This document shows positions 3,325-13,304 of a DNA stretch of 64,000 bases, one piece after another. Both the position numbers and the translations under genes were made by a program. Below the pieces are notes generated by a model that did not search any database, was not told the DNA's origin, and saw nothing but the letters and a program-made list of their open reading frames with translations. Positions within the stretch are counted from its first letter, which is position 1. Every line of letters starts with the position of its first letter. Source of the stretch: Minisyncoccota bacterium (GTDB taxonomy: Bacteria > Patescibacteriota > Minisyncoccia > Phycocordibacterales > UBA6065); NCBI GenBank assembly GCA_036400935.1, contig DASWWW010000004.1:7808-71807 (forward strand), read 5' to 3'.

Positions 3325-3933
3325 TTACCACACGAACATGAGCAGCCACGGCAGGACGAGCGCGATGCCGAGCATGATATTCGCCACATAGAACAGCCAT
3401 GACTCAATCTTCCGATTCGGGATAGCCATCAGCCCGAGGATGTTTGCGGCAAGGCATCCGGCATTGGGAATGATCGGGCTGTGTTCCGGCCTTTGCCATG
3501 TCAGCGCGATGAAAGGCACGGCCGCTATCATGCCGGCCGCTACGGACAAGACGAGGGCCTTTGTCTTTTCATTCCCGATTAGGGCCACGATACAGAAGGT
3601 GGCAAGGGACGTCGTCAGTCCGTCCAAGCCCGAAAAGCCGTACCGCCCTTTAAAAACAAGAATGATGGACGTGGTGGTTGCTCCGGTCGCATAGATGCAC
3701 GGGACGATCAGAGCGGATCTTTCAACCTTGCCCAGCATCGAAACGGTGGTGATCCAAGCCAGGATCGACCAAAGGGCGAACGTGCTGATCAGGAGCCCCT
3801 CGCCCGTTCCGCGGATGATGGCGCATATCATGTAGGCGTAAGAGCCGGCAGCGATTATGGCGCTTAGGATTTTGAGCAGTTTTTTCAAGCAGCAGATGGA
3901 TTGGTTGTTGCGGTGGAGTTGATCTGGGCACAC
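3325..3933 (-). CDS. polytopic membrane protein, paralog B of a tandem pair
   Basis: 202 aa. IRGTGEGLLISTFALWSILAWITTVSM aligns with paralog A at roughly 40-45% identity by eye. Confidence 0.6.
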   Translation of the reverse strand: MCPDQLHRNNQSICCLKKLLKILSAIIAAGSYAYMICAIIRGTGEGLLISTFALWSILAWITTVSMLGKVERSALIVPCIYATGATTTSIILVFKGRYGFSGLDGLTTSLATFCIVALIGNEKTKALVLSVAAGMIAAVPFIALTWQRPEHSPIIPNAGCLAANILGLMAIPNRKIESWLFYVANIMLGIALVLPWLLMFVW

Positions 3934-5579: not shown

Positions 5580-6143
5580 TCACTTAGCCTTAATCACCAT
5601 TTCCATCTCTGGGATTGTTGCTCCGCTTTTCATTCTCCATTTTTCGTCAGACCATCTCTTGCCAGTGTCCACGAAACCAAGCTTCTTATAGAAATCGAGA
5701 GCTTTCTGATTGTATGTTGCCACCTGTACGATTATGTCTTTATCGGGTACAGCAAACTTTTTTACCTCTTCCCACAGCTTTGTGCCAATTCCTCTGCCGT
5801 GAAAATCGGGCAAAACATAGATGGTCCTTAACTGGTTATTGTCCTCATTTCTAATCATGGTTGCCACGCCAACAACCAAATCACCTGACTTCGCCACAAC
5901 CCTCCTTTGATTTTCTGGAGTATTCGCAATTCGCTCCTGCTGGCTTTTAATCTTTTCCTCGGTGAATGCGTCTTTGTATGTTTCCTCAACATCCTCAGCC
6001 GTAATGCCTATTCCTTCATTTGGATACGTTGCAAGCCATGCTTTGTACAAAACATTGGTAATACCCTCAGCGTCTTGAGGTACCGCATCCCTTACTTCAA
6101 TTTTCGGTTCTTTTTCGGCTAGGCTTTCCATGGATAAAGCCAT
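5580..6143 (-). CDS. GNAT family N-acetyltransferase (island cargo, low GC)
   Basis: VATMIRNEDNNQLRTIYVLPDFHGRGIGTKLW carries the acetyl-CoA binding R/Q-x-x-G-x-G motif, and ALDFYKKLGF is the C-terminal GNAT motif. The true start may be the second ATG at 6129 (MESLAEK), because an extended -10 overlaps the first ATG. Confidence 0.8.
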   Translation of the reverse strand: MALSMESLAEKEPKIEVRDAVPQDAEGITNVLYKAWLATYPNEGIGITAEDVEETYKDAFTEEKIKSQQERIANTPENQRRVVAKSGDLVVGVATMIRNEDNNQLRTIYVLPDFHGRGIGTKLWEEVKKFAVPDKDIIVQVATYNQKALDFYKKLGFVDTGKRWSDEKWRMKSGATIPEMEMVIKAK

Positions 6144-6160
6144 TTTACCATTTTCGCTGG
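6129..6160 (-). promoter_or_regulatory. extended -10 promoter (TGGTAAAAT) abutting the GNAT start, giving a leaderless or very short leader
   Basis: Minus sense reads cgAAAATGGTAAAATGgctttatccATG. The same 14-mer GAAAATGGTAAAAT recurs upstream of the giant gene. Confidence 0.4.
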
Positions 6161-6398
6161 CGGGACACCAAAATCTCCTTGTTCTTCAAGGTAAATGCTG
6201 ATAGTGATAGCGATAAATCGCTGAATGTGAACCAATTGTACTTAGAATGGAACACCTTGGAAAGTACGGTTTTGAAGTGGAACTCCGTATTTAGACAGTT
6301 TGGTCTTTCAGAAATGGTTGGAGCAAATGCTTAGGATTTAAGGTGCTTTTTAAAACCTTCCTGCTAAAGTCTTTACCTTATCAGTAATAGAACTATAC

Positions 6399-9300
6399 CT
6401 AGCTAGAGATGATTAAAGAGGCTGAGGGGTCGAGTTTTTCGTTTGCACGGGCAATCGCATCAATCTTCTCCTGAGTGTGAGCACCCACAACAATGGTCTT
6501 ATTTTCATTGATTGCCTTTACTGATGCAGAGATTAAAGCACGACCCAGCAAAACCCTGTTCTTATCAGTTGGGTATGTAGACATAATCTCTGTATAAATT
6601 TTTTCTACAACACTTACAGGAACGGAGTCGTCTATGAGAAGCTTAAGGATGAAATAAAACACCAATTTAAGTGCATTATCTGGATTTACCCCATACTCTG
6701 CTGAAAGGGTTAAAGGAAGGTGGAGCTTCTTCAAGTTTTCTACTTGTACTACAGTAATTGCTCCATCTCCGAAAACAGCCTTCTCCAAATCTTGCGTAAC
6801 AAATTGCAAAAACCTGAAACGGTAAGAAGCGAGATATGAAAAATAGTCTAAATATTCCTGAAAGCTTATACGACCCTGTTCATAAAGCACTCGCATTAAA
6901 ACGAAAGATGAGAAATATTGAGGCTTCGGTTTCTTTGTCTCAAGCTCATTCATATGCAAATACAGGAAATCTTCAGTCAGAACAGGGATACCTTCCCTTT
7001 GAGCAAGAATTGTTGCATCAGTCACGCTTGCTGGAATTTCTCGCTCCGAAAACACATCTTCCTTGCTTGCAGAAGAGATAACCCCAATGTTTGCTGTGTT
7101 TAACTCAAGCAATGCAATGGTCTCAGAAATTCTTTTTCCAGCTAAATCTCGTGCTTCTGGATTTAATTCCGAGTAACCAATTTTTCCTTTGGAATAAAAC
7201 ATCTGACCCGCTTGTCCAGGGGTATAGCTTAGTTTGTCCTTAATTTCTAAAAGCAAACTAATGACAGACTGAGGTACTTTAATGTTTGGAAGATGAGGAT
7301 GTAATTTTCTTAAAAGACCTGTTTCAGCAAGAACCCACGCTGAAGTACCGTCCAAATAAAACGGCTCTTTATTGGCGATAATCCTTGTGACAACATCCTT
7401 TTGAGACTTAAACTCCGCCATTGTTCCATCGCTCATCCTTATAAAGCCTCTCTGCTCGTTTTGTATTCTTCCAATCGCATTTGTAAAGCCTCCTTCACTT
7501 ACAACAAGAAGTGCGAACGGTAAGTTCTGGTCACAATAGTTGTTGAAGAACTCCTGACCTCGCTCCTGCTGTGCTTTCATTAGAGCCTCGACATTTTTCA
7601 AATCAATTCCACCATCCTCAGTCTGGGGTACTTCGATGGAAACTGCCGCATCCCACATTCCTTCGAGTGATAGTTTTTGGAAATGATGGTAAGTCTGCCA
7701 CATAATATATTTCTCTATGGGCAGTATGTTCTCTATAGTTTTCTCTTTTTTATCAGAAGCATACGCATTAGCAATTGTTATTTTCTCACCGACTTTCTTT
7801 CCGATGTAATCCTTCTGTTTTTGCGATGGAATAGGCTGTGCATCTAGTGACTCTCCATCACCAACAAAATACCAGCCATCTTCCTCTTTGAACTTCACAA
7901 ATCTTTCTTTCTCAATTTGACCATCTGTCACCAGTTTTATATCAAGGATATTTCCAATGGTATTGAAAACCATAAAAAGCCCAGCATATTCCTGTGGAGA
8001 CGGTCTTCGTGCGAGAGTTGCGCCACGCACAACTGCCTCAAGTGCAGTTTTTGCATCGTTATGCCTCAAATACACTTCTGAAACAAGGAGAGCATTGCTT
8101 TCAAAATCAGAGAGGTAATTTTTGTATGTCTCTACAAGCTCTTTTGCTTTCTTATTATCTTCATCAGTGTTTCTCCTTAGGAGTGCACTAACGGTTTGGC
8201 ACAATAGGATAGCCTTGTTGTTCTCGTCCAATAGAGTTATGTACTCCTTCTTTCCAAGTATCTCTTCTCCAATTTTTATGGTTTCAGGTAAGCGACCAAG
8301 CTTAAAGTTAGCGGTAAAAAGCTCAAGCTTAATCCGAACTATTCTGTCGGCTTCCTTTTCATAGGTGAGTATCTTTTCACCAAAAATTAGGACAAAGTCC
8401 CAAGCTTCTTTTTTCTTTGCTACACCAAGAAATTTTTGGCTATCAACATACCCAATCTTCGACAAATCCATTTTCTTGAGGACATCGAAAGCGCCATCAG
8501 CATTACCTGCTTCATCTTCTAAAAGTAAATAAAGTCTATCTTTGTGTATTTCCCCAGTGTCAGGAAGAGCCTCAATTATTTTCTTTCGCAAATCTGGCTG
8601 GTTAATTGCGATGCAGGTCATAACTGCGAACTGGTGGTCATCTTTTACTTTAGCAACGAAGCCGTCATAGTCCTTCTCTTCCAAATCATCGATTAGTGCA
8701 ACAAAATTATCCAACTTTTTGCTTGCATAAAACTCCTTACCCTTGGTTTCAAGAGTGCCTTGGTCGAGGAATTGGAGAAACATTCTCTTTGCAAATCCGT
8801 CTGACAGAGGTCTTTCTGCTTTATCTAAGTAAGTAAGCAGTTTTTCAAATCCTGCTTTTGGTAGACCTGCAAACGCAAGAAGGTCAGTCAATATACCATC
8901 AATGACATTATCAAAATGGCAAGAAAGGATTAGTTCAAATGTGTCTTTAACTATCGAGGCAAAATCGTCCAAGCGCTCACTCTGAACAAGAAGCATCGCC
9001 TGTTTGTAATTCAAGTAGACCTGATTGCGAACACCAATGTTACCTGAAGCTTTGAACTTATCGTTTGTGGCTTTTATTTCCTTAAGTATTTCTTCAGTTT
9101 TACTCTTTCTTTTGACCTCATCGGTCTCAGATATGAGATTGTTGATATCCATCGCAATTTTCGCATCATAGTTGGATATTTTTTCAGGATTAAAATACAG
9201 TGCTCTTTCAATAAAAGCTGTTGCGTTTACATCGTCCTCTGATTGCTTCAGGATATTTCCATAAAGTCGATAATAATCAGACTTAATCTTTGCGTCAGCA

Positions 9301-10226
9301 GGAAAAGCATCGGTATCTATTTCGCTTATCGAAACTTTTTCCTTGAGGAAACTCTTTCTTACTAGAATTTCAAGTAAATAAAGCCAGTGAGAAGCGTCGA
9401 TTGCTTTTGCTTCGTCTAGTAATCTCTGATTTTCAGAATAATCACCAGCTATTGCACAAATTTCTGCAAGATAAAGCGGTGCTCGAACATCTTTTGGGTA
9501 TCTTTTATACAAATCCTCATATTTCTTTTTTGCCTCAGGTACTTTCTCAAGACGCTGAAGTGTACGAGCTTCAATTAGCTCAAAATCAAGCAACAACGCT
9601 TCGTCTCCCTGTGAAGAAACAATCTCACGCATAGTATCTAGGGTTTGAGAAACGAAGTTTGCGTGACCTCTGTCTAATTCAGCCTCTAATCCCTTAAGGT
9701 ATTCTCTCGATACTTCAAGTGCTTTTCTCTGGTCAACATCAAATCCTAGAGACACAAGCTGGTCACTATTTAGACCTAAGAGAATTTCCTCAAGCTTTCT
9801 AGGTAAAAGAATACCGAAAGTGATGTCAGGATTTTCGCTTGCTAACTGTGCTCGTGCAGACTCAAGTACGATATCTAGCCCGTTGTTCTTATCGTTAAAG
9901 ACAAAATGGTATTCTTTTATATTTGAAATTTCACTCCAACCACTATTTTTTAGCTTGTTAAAATCATCCACCATCTTTTTGGCGGCTTCCGCACTTTTAT
10001 CAAAAGGGTTCTCTGGTGCATAAATCTGATAGTAAATGCCTTTGCTGGGTATATAGCCATCGTTACCACCATCACCTTTATTTCCGTATGGTCTTACCCT
10101 TTGAAACTCAGGGACAGCTTTTTCCATCACATCAGAAAATAAGCTCTGAAATTCAGAGCCATTCTTCTCGTGCACCTTTTTCCAAAACTGAAGTGACAGA
10201 TACCGCCTGTCCATTTGGCTACTCAT
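6399..10226 (-). CDS. giant 1275-aa protein: N-terminal Mrr-like restriction-endonuclease motif, central TPR-like helical repeats, C-terminal PIN-like region; candidate defense/toxin
   Basis: N-terminus FQSLFSDVMEKAVPEFQRVRPYGNKGDGGNDGYIPSKGIYYQIYAP resembles Mrr_cat (GDGGIDG...QxK, here QIY). The middle is all-helical TPR-like (YEDLYKRYPKDVRAPLYLAEICAIAGDYSENQRLLDEAKAID...). The C-terminus has PIN-like PFYLDGTSAWVLAETG ... IPVLTEDFLYLH. There is no Walker A. GC is low, the sequence being rich in AAA/GAA codons. Confidence 0.8.
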   Translation of the reverse strand: MSSQMDRRYLSLQFWKKVHEKNGSEFQSLFSDVMEKAVPEFQRVRPYGNKGDGGNDGYIPSKGIYYQIYAPENPFDKSAEAAKKMVDDFNKLKNSGWSEISNIKEYHFVFNDKNNGLDIVLESARAQLASENPDITFGILLPRKLEEILLGLNSDQLVSLGFDVDQRKALEVSREYLKGLEAELDRGHANFVSQTLDTMREIVSSQGDEALLLDFELIEARTLQRLEKVPEAKKKYEDLYKRYPKDVRAPLYLAEICAIAGDYSENQRLLDEAKAIDASHWLYLLEILVRKSFLKEKVSISEIDTDAFPADAKIKSDYYRLYGNILKQSEDDVNATAFIERALYFNPEKISNYDAKIAMDINNLISETDEVKRKSKTEEILKEIKATNDKFKASGNIGVRNQVYLNYKQAMLLVQSERLDDFASIVKDTFELILSCHFDNVIDGILTDLLAFAGLPKAGFEKLLTYLDKAERPLSDGFAKRMFLQFLDQGTLETKGKEFYASKKLDNFVALIDDLEEKDYDGFVAKVKDDHQFAVMTCIAINQPDLRKKIIEALPDTGEIHKDRLYLLLEDEAGNADGAFDVLKKMDLSKIGYVDSQKFLGVAKKKEAWDFVLIFGEKILTYEKEADRIVRIKLELFTANFKLGRLPETIKIGEEILGKKEYITLLDENNKAILLCQTVSALLRRNTDEDNKKAKELVETYKNYLSDFESNALLVSEVYLRHNDAKTALEAVVRGATLARRPSPQEYAGLFMVFNTIGNILDIKLVTDGQIEKERFVKFKEEDGWYFVGDGESLDAQPIPSQKQKDYIGKKVGEKITIANAYASDKKEKTIENILPIEKYIMWQTYHHFQKLSLEGMWDAAVSIEVPQTEDGGIDLKNVEALMKAQQERGQEFFNNYCDQNLPFALLVVSEGGFTNAIGRIQNEQRGFIRMSDGTMAEFKSQKDVVTRIIANKEPFYLDGTSAWVLAETGLLRKLHPHLPNIKVPQSVISLLLEIKDKLSYTPGQAGQMFYSKGKIGYSELNPEARDLAGKRISETIALLELNTANIGVISSASKEDVFSEREIPASVTDATILAQREGIPVLTEDFLYLHMNELETKKPKPQYFSSFVLMRVLYEQGRISFQEYLDYFSYLASYRFRFLQFVTQDLEKAVFGDGAITVVQVENLKKLHLPLTLSAEYGVNPDNALKLVFYFILKLLIDDSVPVSVVEKIYTEIMSTYPTDKNRVLLGRALISASVKAINENKTIVVGAHTQEKIDAIARANEKLDPSASLIISS

Positions 10227-10230
10227 AGGG

Positions 10231-10246
10231 CAATTTTACCATTTTC
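10231..10246 (-). promoter_or_regulatory. extended -10 promoter (TGGTAAAAT) 6 nt upstream of the giant gene's ATG, giving a leaderless mRNA
   Basis: Minus sense reads ctGAAAATGGTAAAATtgccctATGagt. A start site ~7 nt after the -10 would be the A of ATG. Confidence 0.4.
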
Positions 10247-10314
10247 AGACCACTTTTGATATAATGTGTCTACAAGCACCTCTTCTGTGTAGGCAACACA
10301 GAAACCTCTTCAAA

Positions 10315-10722
10315 ATGCCTAAAACTGCCCTCAGGAAGCCTTACAAGGCTACTCCTGACACAATCAAGATAATTCTCGATGCAATCGCTGAGGGACTTAC
10401 TCAGCGTGATGCCTCAGTCCTTGCTGGAATAAGCGAGGACACCCTTTCACTTTGGAAGCGTCAGAATTCAGAGTTTTCAGAACAAATTAGACAAAAAGAG
10501 ATTGAGTGCAAAAGGAAACATATCAGGAATATTGAAAAGGCTTCAGAGAAAAGCTGGCAAGCTTCAGCGTGGTGGCTAGAACGAAAATACAAGGACGAAT
10601 TCGCCCTCAAAACTACTGGAAATGAAATAAGTGATGAATTGAGAGAGTCTATGCAAAGGGGCAAAGAAATGTTTGATGAAATTTTTGCAAGGAAGCTCGC
10701 AGGAGCGAAGAAAAAGGCTTAA
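10315..10722 (+). CDS. HTH DNA-binding protein, phage terminase small-subunit-like
   Basis: Start at MPKTALRK (10315). ILDAIAEGLTQRDASVLAGISEDTLSLWKRQNSEFSEQIRQ ... ASAWWLERKYKDEF matches the TerS/HTH_23-type family common on mobile elements. TATAAT at 10262-10267. It is divergent from the giant gene. Confidence 0.6.
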   Translation: MPKTALRKPYKATPDTIKIILDAIAEGLTQRDASVLAGISEDTLSLWKRQNSEFSEQIRQKEIECKRKHIRNIEKASEKSWQASAWWLERKYKDEFALKTTGNEISDELRESMQRGKEMFDEIFARKLAGAKKKA

Positions 10723-10751
10723 TCAGAAGTCGTTTTTGTAGTATAATTTGC

Positions 10752-10871
10752 CTGTTCAACTATAACGGAAGTGACCAGTCAAACAGGTCGCTCTCTTTCT
10801 CCAATCGTAGGCAGAAAGGGGCAGTCCGAGTTCTATGATTGGAGTCCTTCGGGGTTCCGTTATAGTTGAAC
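10752..10871. repeat. 120-bp element bounded by 18-bp perfect inverted repeats (tgttcaactataacggaa / ttccgttatagttgaaca) with nested inner inverted repeats
   Basis: Left arm 10752-10769, right arm 10854-10871. An inner inverted repeat gcagaaaggggcag / ctgtccctttctgc is present. A third direct half-copy tgttcaactat lies at 10938-10948, touching the ATG of the peptide ORF. Confidence 0.7.
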
Positions 10872-10947
10872 ACCTCGGCTGTCCCTTTCTGCATCAAATT
10901 AATACGCTTTAGGGGTAATCCAGCCCAAGGTATAGAAGTGTTCAACT

Positions 10948-11148
10948 ATGCCTGAAACAAAAGATGCGCTTAAATTTCTTGCGCTTTTCGGATTACTTTA
11001 TGTAATCACAAAACATACGCCAATAAATGGTTGGCTTTTGTCATTATTCAATGACTCAATAACAGTGTTAGTGATAATTATTTTTGGTTCACTAGTGCTG
11101 ACATTTGGCTTTGAAGTAATAAGACAGTTCTTCAAGTTTTTTAACTGA
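10948..11148 (+). CDS. small two-TM hydrophobic peptide (66 aa)
   Basis: MPETKDALKFLALFGLLYVITKH...VLVIIIFGSLVLTFGF. Its ATG overlaps the third copy of the repeat half-site. Confidence 0.35.
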   Translation: MPETKDALKFLALFGLLYVITKHTPINGWLLSLFNDSITVLVIIIFGSLVLTFGFEVIRQFFKFFN

Positions 11149-11292
11149 CTTTTCAAGTCAAAATGACCCGTGATATAATTCACCTACAATCGAATAAATC
11201 ACTATTGTTAGCCACACCTAGTTTAAGGTCTCAGCTGTACACTTTTGGCGAAAGAGAAAGCCAATTGACTCGGCAAGATTACACGAATTGGG

Positions 11293-11355
11293 AACGCGAA
11301 ACGGTGGACTCTAAAAGCACAGGAATGTGCTGTCCATTAGTTTCGCGTTTTCTTT
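11293..11355 (+). terminator. nested hairpin plus T-run (terminator or leader structure) upstream of the recombinase operon
   Basis: Outer stem aacgcgaaac / gtttcgcgtt, inner stem agcaca-ggaa-tgtgct, followed by ttcttttggg. Confidence 0.5.
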
Positions 11356-11391
11356 TGGGTAGCCCTCCTCTGCATCGATTGGAGACCATCG

Positions 11392-11574
11392 ATGATTTCT
11401 CTAGAGGACTACAAAAAGAAGCTCGGAGACAAAGCAAAGCTCAAGTCCGATGCCGAAATACTCAAGATAATGAAACTGCAAGAGAAACTTGCGGATGCGT
11501 TTTTCGATATGTGGGTCGAAAAAGTAAATAATAAGAAACTTCCGACTAAGAAAAAATATGAGCGTGAAATTTAA
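11392..11574 (+). CDS. small Lys-rich helical protein (60 aa), possible recombinase accessory or directionality factor
   Basis: MISLEDYKKKLGDKAKLKSDAEILKIMKLQEKLADAFFDMWVEKV. Overlaps the recombinase start by 17 nt. No homology recognised. Confidence 0.3.
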   Translation: MISLEDYKKKLGDKAKLKSDAEILKIMKLQEKLADAFFDMWVEKVNNKKLPTKKKYEREI

Positions 11575-13270
11575 AAACTGTGTAATAGATTGCCGTATCA
11601 GCTCCACCAAGCAAGCTTCGGGTGGAGGTCTTGATGACCAGCAGGCTGTCTGTACAAATCACGCTAGAAATTATGAGTGGAATGTCATTAAGATTTTCAG
11701 CAAGGTCTATTCAGGTCGAAGTGAAGAAAGGGCTGACTTTGAAGAAATTCTTGAATTTATAAAGGAAAAACAAGGCTCAGACACTCCTATCCATTTTTAT
11801 CTTGTTAAGAGCATTGACCGAATAACTCGTGACGGAGCTGTCACTTTTGAAGAAATGAAAAGTCGCCTAGAGTTTTTGGGCGTTCAACTGGTTGATGCAT
11901 ATGGAATGATACAGCCCGCAAAGAACACCCTTGAGCATCTTGGTTTTGAATACAAATGGAGCAAAAAATCGCCAACTGCTACTGCACAGCTTGTAGAGGC
12001 TCAGAGAGCAAAGGATGAAGTTACAGATATCCTTACTCGAATGGTTGGTGCGGAAATTAGGCTTGTTCAGGAGGGTTACAAAGTTCGTCCACCACACGAC
12101 GGATTTGTAAACGAAGTTATTTATGTAAACGGTCAGAAAAAGACAATCGAGTCACCAGACCCCAAGCGAGCAGATTTCTTTAGACAGATGTTCGAGCTTA
12201 GAGCGTCAGGAAGCTTTAGTGATGCTGAGGTTGTCGAAAAAATAAATGCTCTTGGTTATCTCAGTAAGCCTAGAAGTAGATGGGTGTATAGCAAGGACGG
12301 CAAGAGGAGGAAAATTGGTGAGGTTGCGGGTAAGCCCCTTACTGTTAAACAGCTCCAAAGATTTATCTGTCGAACTATTTACGCAGGTATCAATATTGAA
12401 AAGTGGACACACGGCAAACCTATAAAGCAACAATATGATGGCTTGGTTTCGATTGAGACTTTCAACCTAGCAAACAAGGGCAAGATTTATATTCAAGAGA
12501 ACGAAGACGGTTCTTATCAGATTTTGCATAACCAGAAAGACCCACGGGCAATAATGAAGAGGAATAAATTTAATCCTCTTTTCCAATTCGATAAATTGGT
12601 TCTGTGTCCTAAAGGTTGCTGTAAACCCGCTTTGTCTAGCCAAAGTACTGGAAAGTTGGGTAATAAATATCCTGCCTATCACTGTAATAGAAATCACTAC
12701 TGGAGAGTTTCGAAGTCAGAATTTGAGAAAGAAGTAATGAAGTTTTTGAATAGTGTTCATTTCGATGAGGAATTTCTTGAGGGGTTTGAACTTATATTGC
12801 TAGATAAATATCGAGAGCGAGAAGCTGAAGTGCTTAAGGTTTCTTCCAAAGTAAGTGAAAACATCGCTGACCTAAAGGCTCAACAGGCAAAAGCCATTTC
12901 AGATTTCAGGGGTACAAAAAGCTCTATCATCCGACACAAGCTTGAAGAAGAAATTGAAGACCTTGAGAAGCGAATTAAGTCAGCAAGAGTTGAGAGACAG
13001 AAAGTCGAGCTTCAGGAGACCGATATTAAGTCGTTCATCAATTATGTGAAATTTCTAATGGAACACCCAGTAGAAATGCTTGCAGATAATAGCAATCCTT
13101 ACCGTCAGAAGGCTCTTTGGGGACTATTCTTTGAGGAAACTCCGACCTATGCCGAGATAGTTAATGGAACACCAAAACTGTCGCCTGTTGTAAGGCTTTC
13201 TTCTAAACTAGAGGGTGATAAAACCCAAATTGTGACCCTACGGGGAATCGAACCCCGATTTAAAGCTTGA
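11558..13270 (+). CDS. large serine recombinase (integrase)
   Basis: N-terminal resolvase catalytic motif VIDCRISSTKQ (Arg-x-Ser-Ser), a recombinase domain, a zinc-ribbon-like CPKGCCKP...YHC, and a C-terminal coiled-coil. 570 aa. Its last 37 nt overlap tRNA-Glu. Confidence 0.85.
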   Translation: MSVKFKNCVIDCRISSTKQASGGGLDDQQAVCTNHARNYEWNVIKIFSKVYSGRSEERADFEEILEFIKEKQGSDTPIHFYLVKSIDRITRDGAVTFEEMKSRLEFLGVQLVDAYGMIQPAKNTLEHLGFEYKWSKKSPTATAQLVEAQRAKDEVTDILTRMVGAEIRLVQEGYKVRPPHDGFVNEVIYVNGQKKTIESPDPKRADFFRQMFELRASGSFSDAEVVEKINALGYLSKPRSRWVYSKDGKRRKIGEVAGKPLTVKQLQRFICRTIYAGINIEKWTHGKPIKQQYDGLVSIETFNLANKGKIYIQENEDGSYQILHNQKDPRAIMKRNKFNPLFQFDKLVLCPKGCCKPALSSQSTGKLGNKYPAYHCNRNHYWRVSKSEFEKEVMKFLNSVHFDEEFLEGFELILLDKYREREAEVLKVSSKVSENIADLKAQQAKAISDFRGTKSSIIRHKLEEEIEDLEKRIKSARVERQKVELQETDIKSFINYVKFLMEHPVEMLADNSNPYRQKALWGLFFEETPTYAEIVNGTPKLSPVVRLSSKLEGDKTQIVTLRGIEPRFKA

Positions 13271-13304
13271 GAAGCTTCCGTCCTAACCATTAGACGATAG
13301 GGCC
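13233..13304 (-). tRNA. tRNA-Glu (anticodon CUC)
   Basis: Hand-folded minus sense: acceptor GGCCCTA/TAGGGTC (one G-U pair), D-arm GTCT-AATGGTTA-GGAC, anticodon stem GAAGC/GCTTT with loop TTCTCAA, T-arm CGGGG-TTCGATT-CCCCG, discriminator A. CCA is not encoded. Confidence 0.8.

Follow-up and report, generated by a model that had tools for sequence, protein, structure and literature searches.

The 64,000-nucleotide stretch of Minisyncoccota contig DASWWW010000004.1 analysed here (the window) contains an element of interleaved inverted repeats that lies directly upstream of a gene for a hydrophobic 66-residue peptide. That the DNA of this element encodes a plus-strand structured RNA of ~140 nt, spanning 10753–10892, is well supported, and the RNA is similar in plan to the LOOT RNA of Rfam (RF03000). 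We consider it probable that the RNA is the 5′ leader of the membrane-peptide mRNA, and propose that it gates translation of the peptide by an exchange of helices at the start codon.

Interleaved repeats and the RNA they encode

The sequence TGTTCAACTATAACGGAA at 10753–10770 has a perfect inverted partner, TTCCGTTATAGTTGAACA, at 10855–10872 (18/18, with an 84-nt spacer), and a direct third copy of the 5′ arm, referred to as a2, is present at 10939–10956. The third copy is identical to the arm at 15 of 18 positions, including an exact 11-base start (TGTTCAACTAT) that ends with the A and T of the initiating ATG (10948–10950) of the 66-aa open reading frame (ORF; 10948–11148). A preliminary description of this DNA had recognized both the perfect repeat and the copy on the peptide start codon, although it placed each of them 1 nt too low. 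Its view that the repeat is far beyond chance is borne out, as three matches at ≤3 mismatches were not obtained in any of 100 dinucleotide-shuffled versions of the window (mean 0.01), and the number of perfect 18-bp inverted repeats expected in 64 kb for spacers of ≤200 nt is about 2e-4. A second repeat noted at the same time, GCAGAAAGGGGCAG (10811–10824) with CTGTCCCTTTCTGC (10879–10892), is real, but it is not nested within the 84 nt as had been thought; its second arm is outside that segment and 3′ of the outer repeat, so the two repeats interleave and have the topology of a pseudoknot. The sole DNA mismatch in this second repeat is a G-T that becomes a G-U pair in the plus-strand RNA, and the pairing is prolonged by CCGAG (10826–10830) with CTCGG (10874–10878), for a total of 19 pairs and one bulge. 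The parts of the RNA and of the segment that follows it are:

10742–10747, plus strand: −10 hexamer TATAAT, read from the sequence, with a predicted transcription start at ~10753–10755
10753–10770, plus strand: 5′ arm (a) of the outer closing stem, complementary at 18/18 positions to 10855–10872
10771–10791, plus strand: hairpin Pa, GUGACC...GGUCGC, with a fold energy of −7.2 kcal/mol
10799–10844, plus strand: hairpin Pb, a 12-bp stem (10799–10810 with 10833–10844) and a 22-nt loop (10811–10832)
10811–10830, plus strand: 5′ strand of the pseudoknot, GCAGAAAGGGGCAG-U-CCGAG, nearly the whole Pb loop, complementary to 10874–10892
10845–10854, plus strand: hairpin Pc, UCC-UUCG-GGG, with a UUCG tetraloop, from sequence and fold
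10855–10872, plus strand: 3′ arm (a′) of the outer stem, complementary to the 5′ arm and to the third copy
10874–10892, plus strand: 3′ tail CUCGG-CUGUCCCUUUCUGC, the 3′ strand of the pseudoknot, pairing with the Pb loop
10928–10953, plus strand: local hairpin AGGUAUAG/CUAUGCCU (10928–10935 with 10946–10953), covering a Shine-Dalgarno-like GGU and the AUG
10939–10956, plus strand: third copy (a2), a direct repeat of the 5′ arm overlapping the start codon
10948–11148, plus strand: hydrophobic 66-aa peptide gene, the proposed regulated gene, from the ORF list and its hydrophobic segments

The plus strand from 10750 to 10960 folds at −77.4 kcal/mol (z = −6.1, ViennaRNA), and folding of the minus strand is weaker (z = −3.5). 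The 14-bp portion of the pseudoknot has a duplex energy of −24.6 kcal/mol, and the local hairpin at 10928–10953 is present in every ViennaRNA fold. From the position of TATAAT, transcription would start on the first bases of the outer stem. A hexamer is found at the same distance in the homologues (TATAAT, TAAAAT or TATAGT), and a promoter scan called TTCATA-17-TATAAT at the equivalent place in L054. The third copy together with the GGUAUAG upstream of it resembles promoter and leader sequence that has been duplicated in part.

Homologues were located through the peptide, and there are six full copies of the element (window, L047, L054, L056, L016 and L018) and three partial ones (L053, L019 and L057). 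Conservation in homologous islands was looked for, and the full copies keep the helices with both compensatory and G-U changes. In the six-sequence alignment 91.5% of the pair cells are paired, as compared with 37–46% when the partners are slid. The outer helix is 92.6% paired, with one U-A pair replaced by C-G in three of the six sequences, and Pb is 100% paired, its basal C-G pair being G-C in three of six. G-U pairs are seen in the outer stem, Pb, Pc and the pseudoknot, and since the opposite strand would turn these into A-C mismatches, the changes fit the plus strand only. A hairpin persists in the place of Pa despite having other stems (GACCUC/GAGGUU and AACCC/GGGUU; weak, with 3 bp, in L016 and L018), and Pc is retained with a basal U-G to U-A change and UUUG for UUCG in the loop. 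The 5′ strand of the pseudoknot is unchanged except for the bulged base, and the third copy is invariant in the full homologues, the partial copy L057 differing at the base just upstream of it. The local hairpin is kept in L047 through an A to G change that gives a G-U pair.

A covariance model of the family (R1) matches the window and every homologous island exactly once, at 159–169 bits, and has no match elsewhere in the window, in LOOT islands or at any other scanned locus. Rfam has no match to the element (window at the gathering threshold; 10200–11700 at E ≤ 10) or, at E ≤ 10, to homologues L016, L018, L055 and L053; the element is an RNA family separate from RF03000 and absent from Rfam. 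There are stop codons in all three plus-strand frames of the element region, and the homologues vary by non-multiples of three in the spacing of the ATG from the first base of the 5′ arm; the plus strand is therefore non-coding. A minus-strand ORF of 61 aa (10760–10945) was judged to be spurious because it spans 1-nt indels among the homologues. A scan of viral contigs with the 18-mer gave one match, in L001, which is a single copy lacking an inverted partner and was dismissed as a chance match. A 21-mer from the conserved loop has no matches in the viral contigs, and there is no match to 10230–11560 in the phage genome collection (blastn, 'distant' mode).

The hydrophobicity of the peptide was confirmed, and there are seven homologous proteins. 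The RNA is directly upstream of the peptide homologue in all five readable contigs of six that were looked up, and the type of RNA is strictly coupled to the peptide family. The tail is 55 nt from the AUG, and no terminator-like site was called between 10893 and 10948, nor was a conserved internal promoter found between the RNA and the peptide ORF (L047 has none), and we read the RNA as the probable 5′ leader of the peptide mRNA.

LOOT RNA in sister islands

The element is part of a low-GC stretch of ~7 kb, at roughly 6150–13270, that has about 40% G+C amid DNA of ~55% G+C. The order within this island is a PIN-TPR-GreABC gene, a gene for a helix-turn-helix (HTH) protein, the element, the peptide gene, a second non-coding stretch, a 60-aa ORF and a recombinase gene. 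The last 39 nt of the recombinase gene overlap a tRNA-Glu(CUC) gene on the other strand (13232–13304). The larger genes are:

Island cargo: PIN-TPR-GreABC domain protein of 1275 aa, from a domain match
Upstream of the element: small HTH protein, matching a PHROG annotated 'terminase small subunit' (TerS); its true start is probably 10315, giving 135 aa
700 nt downstream of the element: gene for a large serine recombinase of 570 aa

An identical match to the HTH protein is named 'Candidatus Paceibacterota bacterium', and other named homologues are from Parcubacteria-type members of the candidate phyla radiation (CPR). Genomes and metagenomes were searched with an alignment of HTH homologues, with five contigs added via a protein index, and the resulting loci were scanned with Rfam. 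LOOT RNA adjoins the HTH gene in 19 of these loci, on either strand and at 51–96 bits, and a twentieth LOOT locus (L017) was recognized by eye. The metagenome-assembled genomes that contain LOOT loci are named Parcubacteria, Paceibacteria and Saccharibacteria. Their islands are built on the same backbone, in which an HTH gene and an RNA are accompanied by a small ORF, a second RNA and the gene for a serine recombinase, the last of these running into a gene for tRNA-Glu or tRNA-Asn. The LOOT module is found in either orientation relative to the HTH gene.

Counts for LOOT refer to the 19 loci with Rfam coordinates. In all 19, the loop of hairpin P2 pairs with the 3′ tail over 16–22 nt using sequences that are locus-specific (292 Watson-Crick pairs, 64 G-U and 12 A-C in total). 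Most of the tails have a U-run after the GC-containing loop-tail helix; L026 and L027 do not. In 14 of 19 loci, an exact copy of 9–12 nt of the locus's own P2 5′ arm ends 2–7 nt before the ATG, as compared with matches of ≥8 nt in 2 of 318 cross-locus controls, in which each arm was set against downstream sequence from a different locus. In several loci, pairing of the P2 3′ arm with the third copy gives a helix of about the same stability as P2 (e.g. −20.8 versus −18.7 kcal/mol in L002). This copy often reaches upstream into the linker and the 3′ strand of P1, and it looks like a partial duplication of the 5′ part of the RNA; in the window, the third-copy duplication likewise extends into promoter and leader sequence. 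The genes 3′ of LOOT encode mostly small membrane or secreted proteins of several unrelated families. This three-way covariation, between a stem arm, the strand that pairs with it and the copy near the ATG, points to cis-regulation by LOOT.

LOOT was discovered by Weinberg et al. 2017 (PMC5737381) and is listed in the Rfam 14 and 15 papers (PMC7779021, PMC11701678), the discovery paper and the Rfam papers being the only ones found; no function is given for it in the literature searched. The context established here, which is not part of the published definition, gives LOOT both a host and a setting, namely Parcubacteria and Saccharibacteria and their small tRNA-integrating islands, in which the defence cargo is swappable, as well as a consistent downstream partner in a membrane or secreted protein gene. 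LOOT had reportedly been described only from metagenomes, with the organism not assigned. Its location in CPR integrative islands ahead of genes for membrane proteins, and the three-way covariation, appear not to have been described before in the literature searched, in which nothing specific was found on CPR serine-recombinase defence islands.

The window RNA and LOOT occupy the same slot, beside the gene for a TerS-like HTH protein in CPR islands where a large serine recombinase gene adjoins a tRNA gene, and both lie upstream of a membrane-protein gene. They have the same order of parts, starting with a hairpin and a linker, and then a long hairpin with a loop that pairs with the tail (10811–10830 with 10874–10892 in the window, 19/19 in LOOT), a tetraloop hairpin, the tail, a spacer and the third copy. 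The LOOT promoter and leader (TATAAT, a few bases and ACAAYYNAAUA) also align with the window start TATAATTTGC...CAACT, and TATAATTTGC recurs in the LOOT promoter of L002. However, the window RNA and its homologues have no match to RF03000 at E ≤ 10 (its gathering threshold is 46.4 bits), and the P1 hairpin with a tetraloop receptor of the 11-nt type (CCUAA...UAUGG) and the GAAA-capped P3 of LOOT are both missing from 10753–10892, where Pa is a plain hairpin and the sole tetraloop is UUCG. The window RNA has instead an 18-bp outer helix that connects its 5′ end with the nucleotides immediately preceding the tail. The arm that is duplicated is part of this helix in the window RNA and of the long hairpin in LOOT, and the loop and tail are invariant in the window family but hypervariable in LOOT. 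The element is best described as a LOOT-like RNA and not as a member of RF03000, and it replaces LOOT, on the same plan, in one branch of the CPR tRNA-integrating islands. There are thus two RNA families with one slot and one logic, using either a closing helix or a tetraloop-receptor contact, and comparing them is a natural way to ask which features of the design matter.

Several other features of the LOOT loci were noted. A motif, ACAAYYNAATA, is located just 3′ of the −10 hexamer and 13–16 nt upstream of LOOT (L002–L032), with a copy at 11186 in the window; as it also precedes the second RNA, it could be an operator common to the two transcription units, or an element of their initially transcribed region by which both are co-regulated. 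In L006 the best partner of the P2 3′ arm is not at the ATG but ~170 nt inside the downstream ORF (CAGTAACGAC, −17.0 kcal/mol), which may be by chance, as the close relative L007 has no such site. A role for the variable loop in guiding integration to its site was rejected, as islands located at one and the same tRNA-Asn have different loops, tRNA-Glu(CUC) is used by islands of the LOOT type and of the window type alike, and the window loop has no match in the tRNA.

Proposed helix exchange and alternative explanations

The 3′ arm a′ is complementary both to 10753–10770 and to 10935–10956, which includes the AUG, and the two pairings are mutually exclusive. We propose that transcription would proceed from the TATAAT at 10742–10747 and run on into the 66-aa peptide gene. 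With an intact and folded 5′ domain, a′ would be held in the closing helix and the start site would be under the weak local hairpin alone. If the closing helix were lost, a′ would pair with the third copy and the start codon would be buried; such a loss might come from 5′ decay or processing, from failure of the tertiary fold, or from a ligand or protein. In this way the state of the leader would control how the membrane peptide is translated.

Leaders with three partners that exchange helices are familiar from the expression platforms of riboswitches and from the type I toxin mRNAs hok (tac/fbi) and AapA1. The window RNA is similar to these in that a 3′ arm has two near-identical partners, one of which overlaps the start codon, and it shares with the toxin mRNAs a small hydrophobic peptide gene on a mobile element. 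It differs in that a ligand pocket, antisense RNA or processing site was not identified in it, its energetics strongly favour one state, and the second partner resembles a duplication of the RNA's own 5′ end. In IncB and IncI-alpha plasmids, pseudoknots between a loop and a downstream segment activate rep translation, and there too a hairpin loop pairs downstream within an mRNA leader on a mobile element. Those pseudoknots are of 6–8 bp, located at the ribosome-binding site and antisense-controlled, whereas that of the window has 19 bp, is 55 nt before the AUG, and has no evident antisense.

A number of observations weigh against a translational switch of this kind, or against parts of it. The outer helix (a:a′, −26.2 kcal/mol) is more stable than the exchanged one (a2:a′, −18.5 kcal/mol), so that the energies disfavour the proposed off state, and even with the 5′ arm deleted or blocked, a′:a2 is not in the minimum-energy fold (ViennaRNA); the switch is therefore drawn from the design of the sequence. 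The local hairpin covers the AUG in every predicted state, and no trigger for the exchange was identified. The leader transcript is itself a prediction, the window promoter was not called by the promoter scan, and its −35 is poor. Covariation support for the element as a structured RNA is real but thin, since the six full sequences are closely related, compensatory change is confined to two pairs, and the covariation score was equalled in 8 of 500 shuffles; within the family there is no variation in either the pseudoknot or the third copy, so that neither has covariation support there. Finally, a 22-nt Pb loop should not be able to form a 19-bp duplex while its own stem is closed, in which case the structure as drawn cannot be one static fold, and the Pb hairpin and the loop-tail duplex may be alternative states, both in the window family and in LOOT.

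One alternative is that the RNA is a stand-alone structured small RNA (sRNA) that ends near 10893 and acts in trans or with a protein partner, in which case the third copy would be the site that it targets on the adjacent mRNA, or simply what is left of a partial duplication of its 5′ end. We regard this as doubtful while allowing it a modest chance. It draws on the Rfam class of LOOT ('Gene; sRNA'), which is not that of a cis-regulator and also counts against the leader proposal, on the resemblance of the U-run after the loop-tail helix in most LOOT tails to an intrinsic terminator, and on the failure of folding to predict the a′:a2 pairing. The third copy also extends upstream as a duplication would (in L002, GGUAUGGUCAAAAACGCGACGAAC versus GGUAUUAUCAAUAAAAUCGCGACGAAC; in the window, AGUAUAAUUUGCCUGUUCAACUAU versus GGUAUAGAAGUGUUCAACUAU). 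However, the would-be target-binding 3′ arm is locked in an 18-bp perfect helix, which is unusual for an sRNA seed, and the window tail (CCCUUUCUGC) has no real U-tract, like those of L026 and L027, and is followed by no called terminator-like site. A neutral remnant would not stay exact, locus-matched and 2–7 nt before the ATG in 14 of 19 diverged LOOT loci, and the strict coupling of RNA type to peptide family also counts against this alternative. The preliminary description had listed a structured RNA among four options, either a riboregulator of the peptide or a type I toxin-antitoxin antisense. The first of these is the one supported. In the second, the peptide would be a toxin silenced by its folded leader, with an antisense RNA as antitoxin and stabilization of the island as the outcome, and we think it improbable. 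The gene is of a fitting kind (small, hydrophobic and on a mobile island), and the long structured leader, in which three segments can exchange pairing around the start codon, is like those of hok and AapA1, but no conserved antisense promoter was found, and the weak minus-strand matches within the window ORF are missing from L016, L054 and L047. The minus strand also folds less well, the G-U pairs fit the plus strand only, and the genes downstream in LOOT islands include proteins of 100–316 aa that are not toxin-like peptides.

The remaining two options place the function in the DNA. In an operator array, two inverted copies of GTTCAACTA and one direct copy would allow the TerS-like HTH protein to repress the promoter and the peptide gene; none of the homologues departs from GTTCAACTA at any of these three places, the first copy directly adjoins the −10 hexamer, the HTH gene ends 20 nt upstream of that hexamer, and ACAAYYNAATA is promoter-proximal both before LOOT and before the second RNA of the islands. 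The triplet nonetheless tracks the RNA/peptide module and not the HTH family. It occurs with the LAGISEDT type of HTH protein (window, L016 and L018) and with a visibly divergent FAGISEKT type (in L047, L054 and L056, where the RNA/peptide module is at 3409–3777, 3373–3762 and 3371–3760, respectively), from which it follows that the module and the HTH gene assort independently, and it is absent from LOOT islands that have a ~80% identical HTH protein bearing the same GISEDTLSLWKR segment. Moreover, changes in the arms are compensatory or G-U and strand-specific, and hence at the RNA level, and the three-copy sequence of LOOT varies by locus though the HTH protein is conserved. As the element does not follow the HTH protein, an operator array for that protein is very unlikely. 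A miniature inverted-repeat element or part of an attP-like region of the recombinase, as suggested by the perfect 18-bp terminal inverted repeats around a short non-coding segment and by the serine recombinase gene 700 nt downstream, is the least credible explanation, and we give it almost no weight. There is a single copy in the 64 kb and one per homologous island, always in the same slot, with no visible target-site duplication. Integration would split attP, but the element is intact 2.3 kb inside an already integrated island that borders on tRNA-Glu at its recombinase end, and tRNA-Glu(CUC) can serve as the target of islands of both the LOOT and the window type.

The leader mechanism could be extended to both RNA families, although we consider the extension speculative and rather unlikely to hold in full. 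LOOT and the RNA that replaces it would be sensors of a new class of bistable leaders that flip on a signal and gate a membrane-active peptide serving the island. The partial duplicate of each RNA's 5′ half beside the start codon would provide the alternative pairing, the signal might be a small molecule, a phage product or loss of the 5′ end, and the peptide might serve abortive infection, exclusion or island maintenance. If true, this would be a first function for the orphan LOOT RNA and would place RNA-gated effectors in CPR defence islands.

The island family and a second conserved RNA

Low-GC islands of ~7 kb in the window, L012, L013, L016, L018, L047, L054 and L056 form a family in CPR genomes. 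Their backbone consists of the HTH gene, the RNA-plus-peptide module, a second RNA, and a large serine recombinase gene that overlaps a tRNA-Glu or tRNA-Asn gene at its 3′ end, and the cargo upstream is interchangeable: PIN-TPR-GreABC, DUF2326 with MC6, restriction-modification, a HEAT-repeat protein beside a STAND-like one, or an SDH protease with NfeD. In the window, the cargo gene is bracketed by a 22-nt direct repeat (6134–6155, ATAAAGCCATTTTACCATTTTC, and 10225–10246, ATAGGGCAATTTTACCATTTTC; 86% identical). The two copies span the start codons of minus-strand genes, those of a host GNAT acetyltransferase and the PIN-TPR protein, and the repeat may be the left island junction or a site of cargo exchange.

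A second conserved structured RNA is located at 11184–11356 (plus strand), between the peptide gene and the operon of the 60-aa ORF and recombinase. It is preceded by a promoter, TGATATAAT, at 11171–11179, and the leader motif ACAAUCGAAUA at 11186 is the same as that preceding every LOOT. RNAalifold analysis of seven homologues gives 33 pairs, 12 of them with compensatory changes, and there is no match in Rfam. The 3′ end has a long stem (AACGCGAAAC/GUUUCGCGUU) and then a U-run, with the look of a terminator, and the RNA could be an attenuator for recombinase expression. Among the flanks of the LOOT loci, that of the Parcubacteria locus L002 contains a group I intron at 7240–7523 on the minus strand (Rfam, 80.8 bits).

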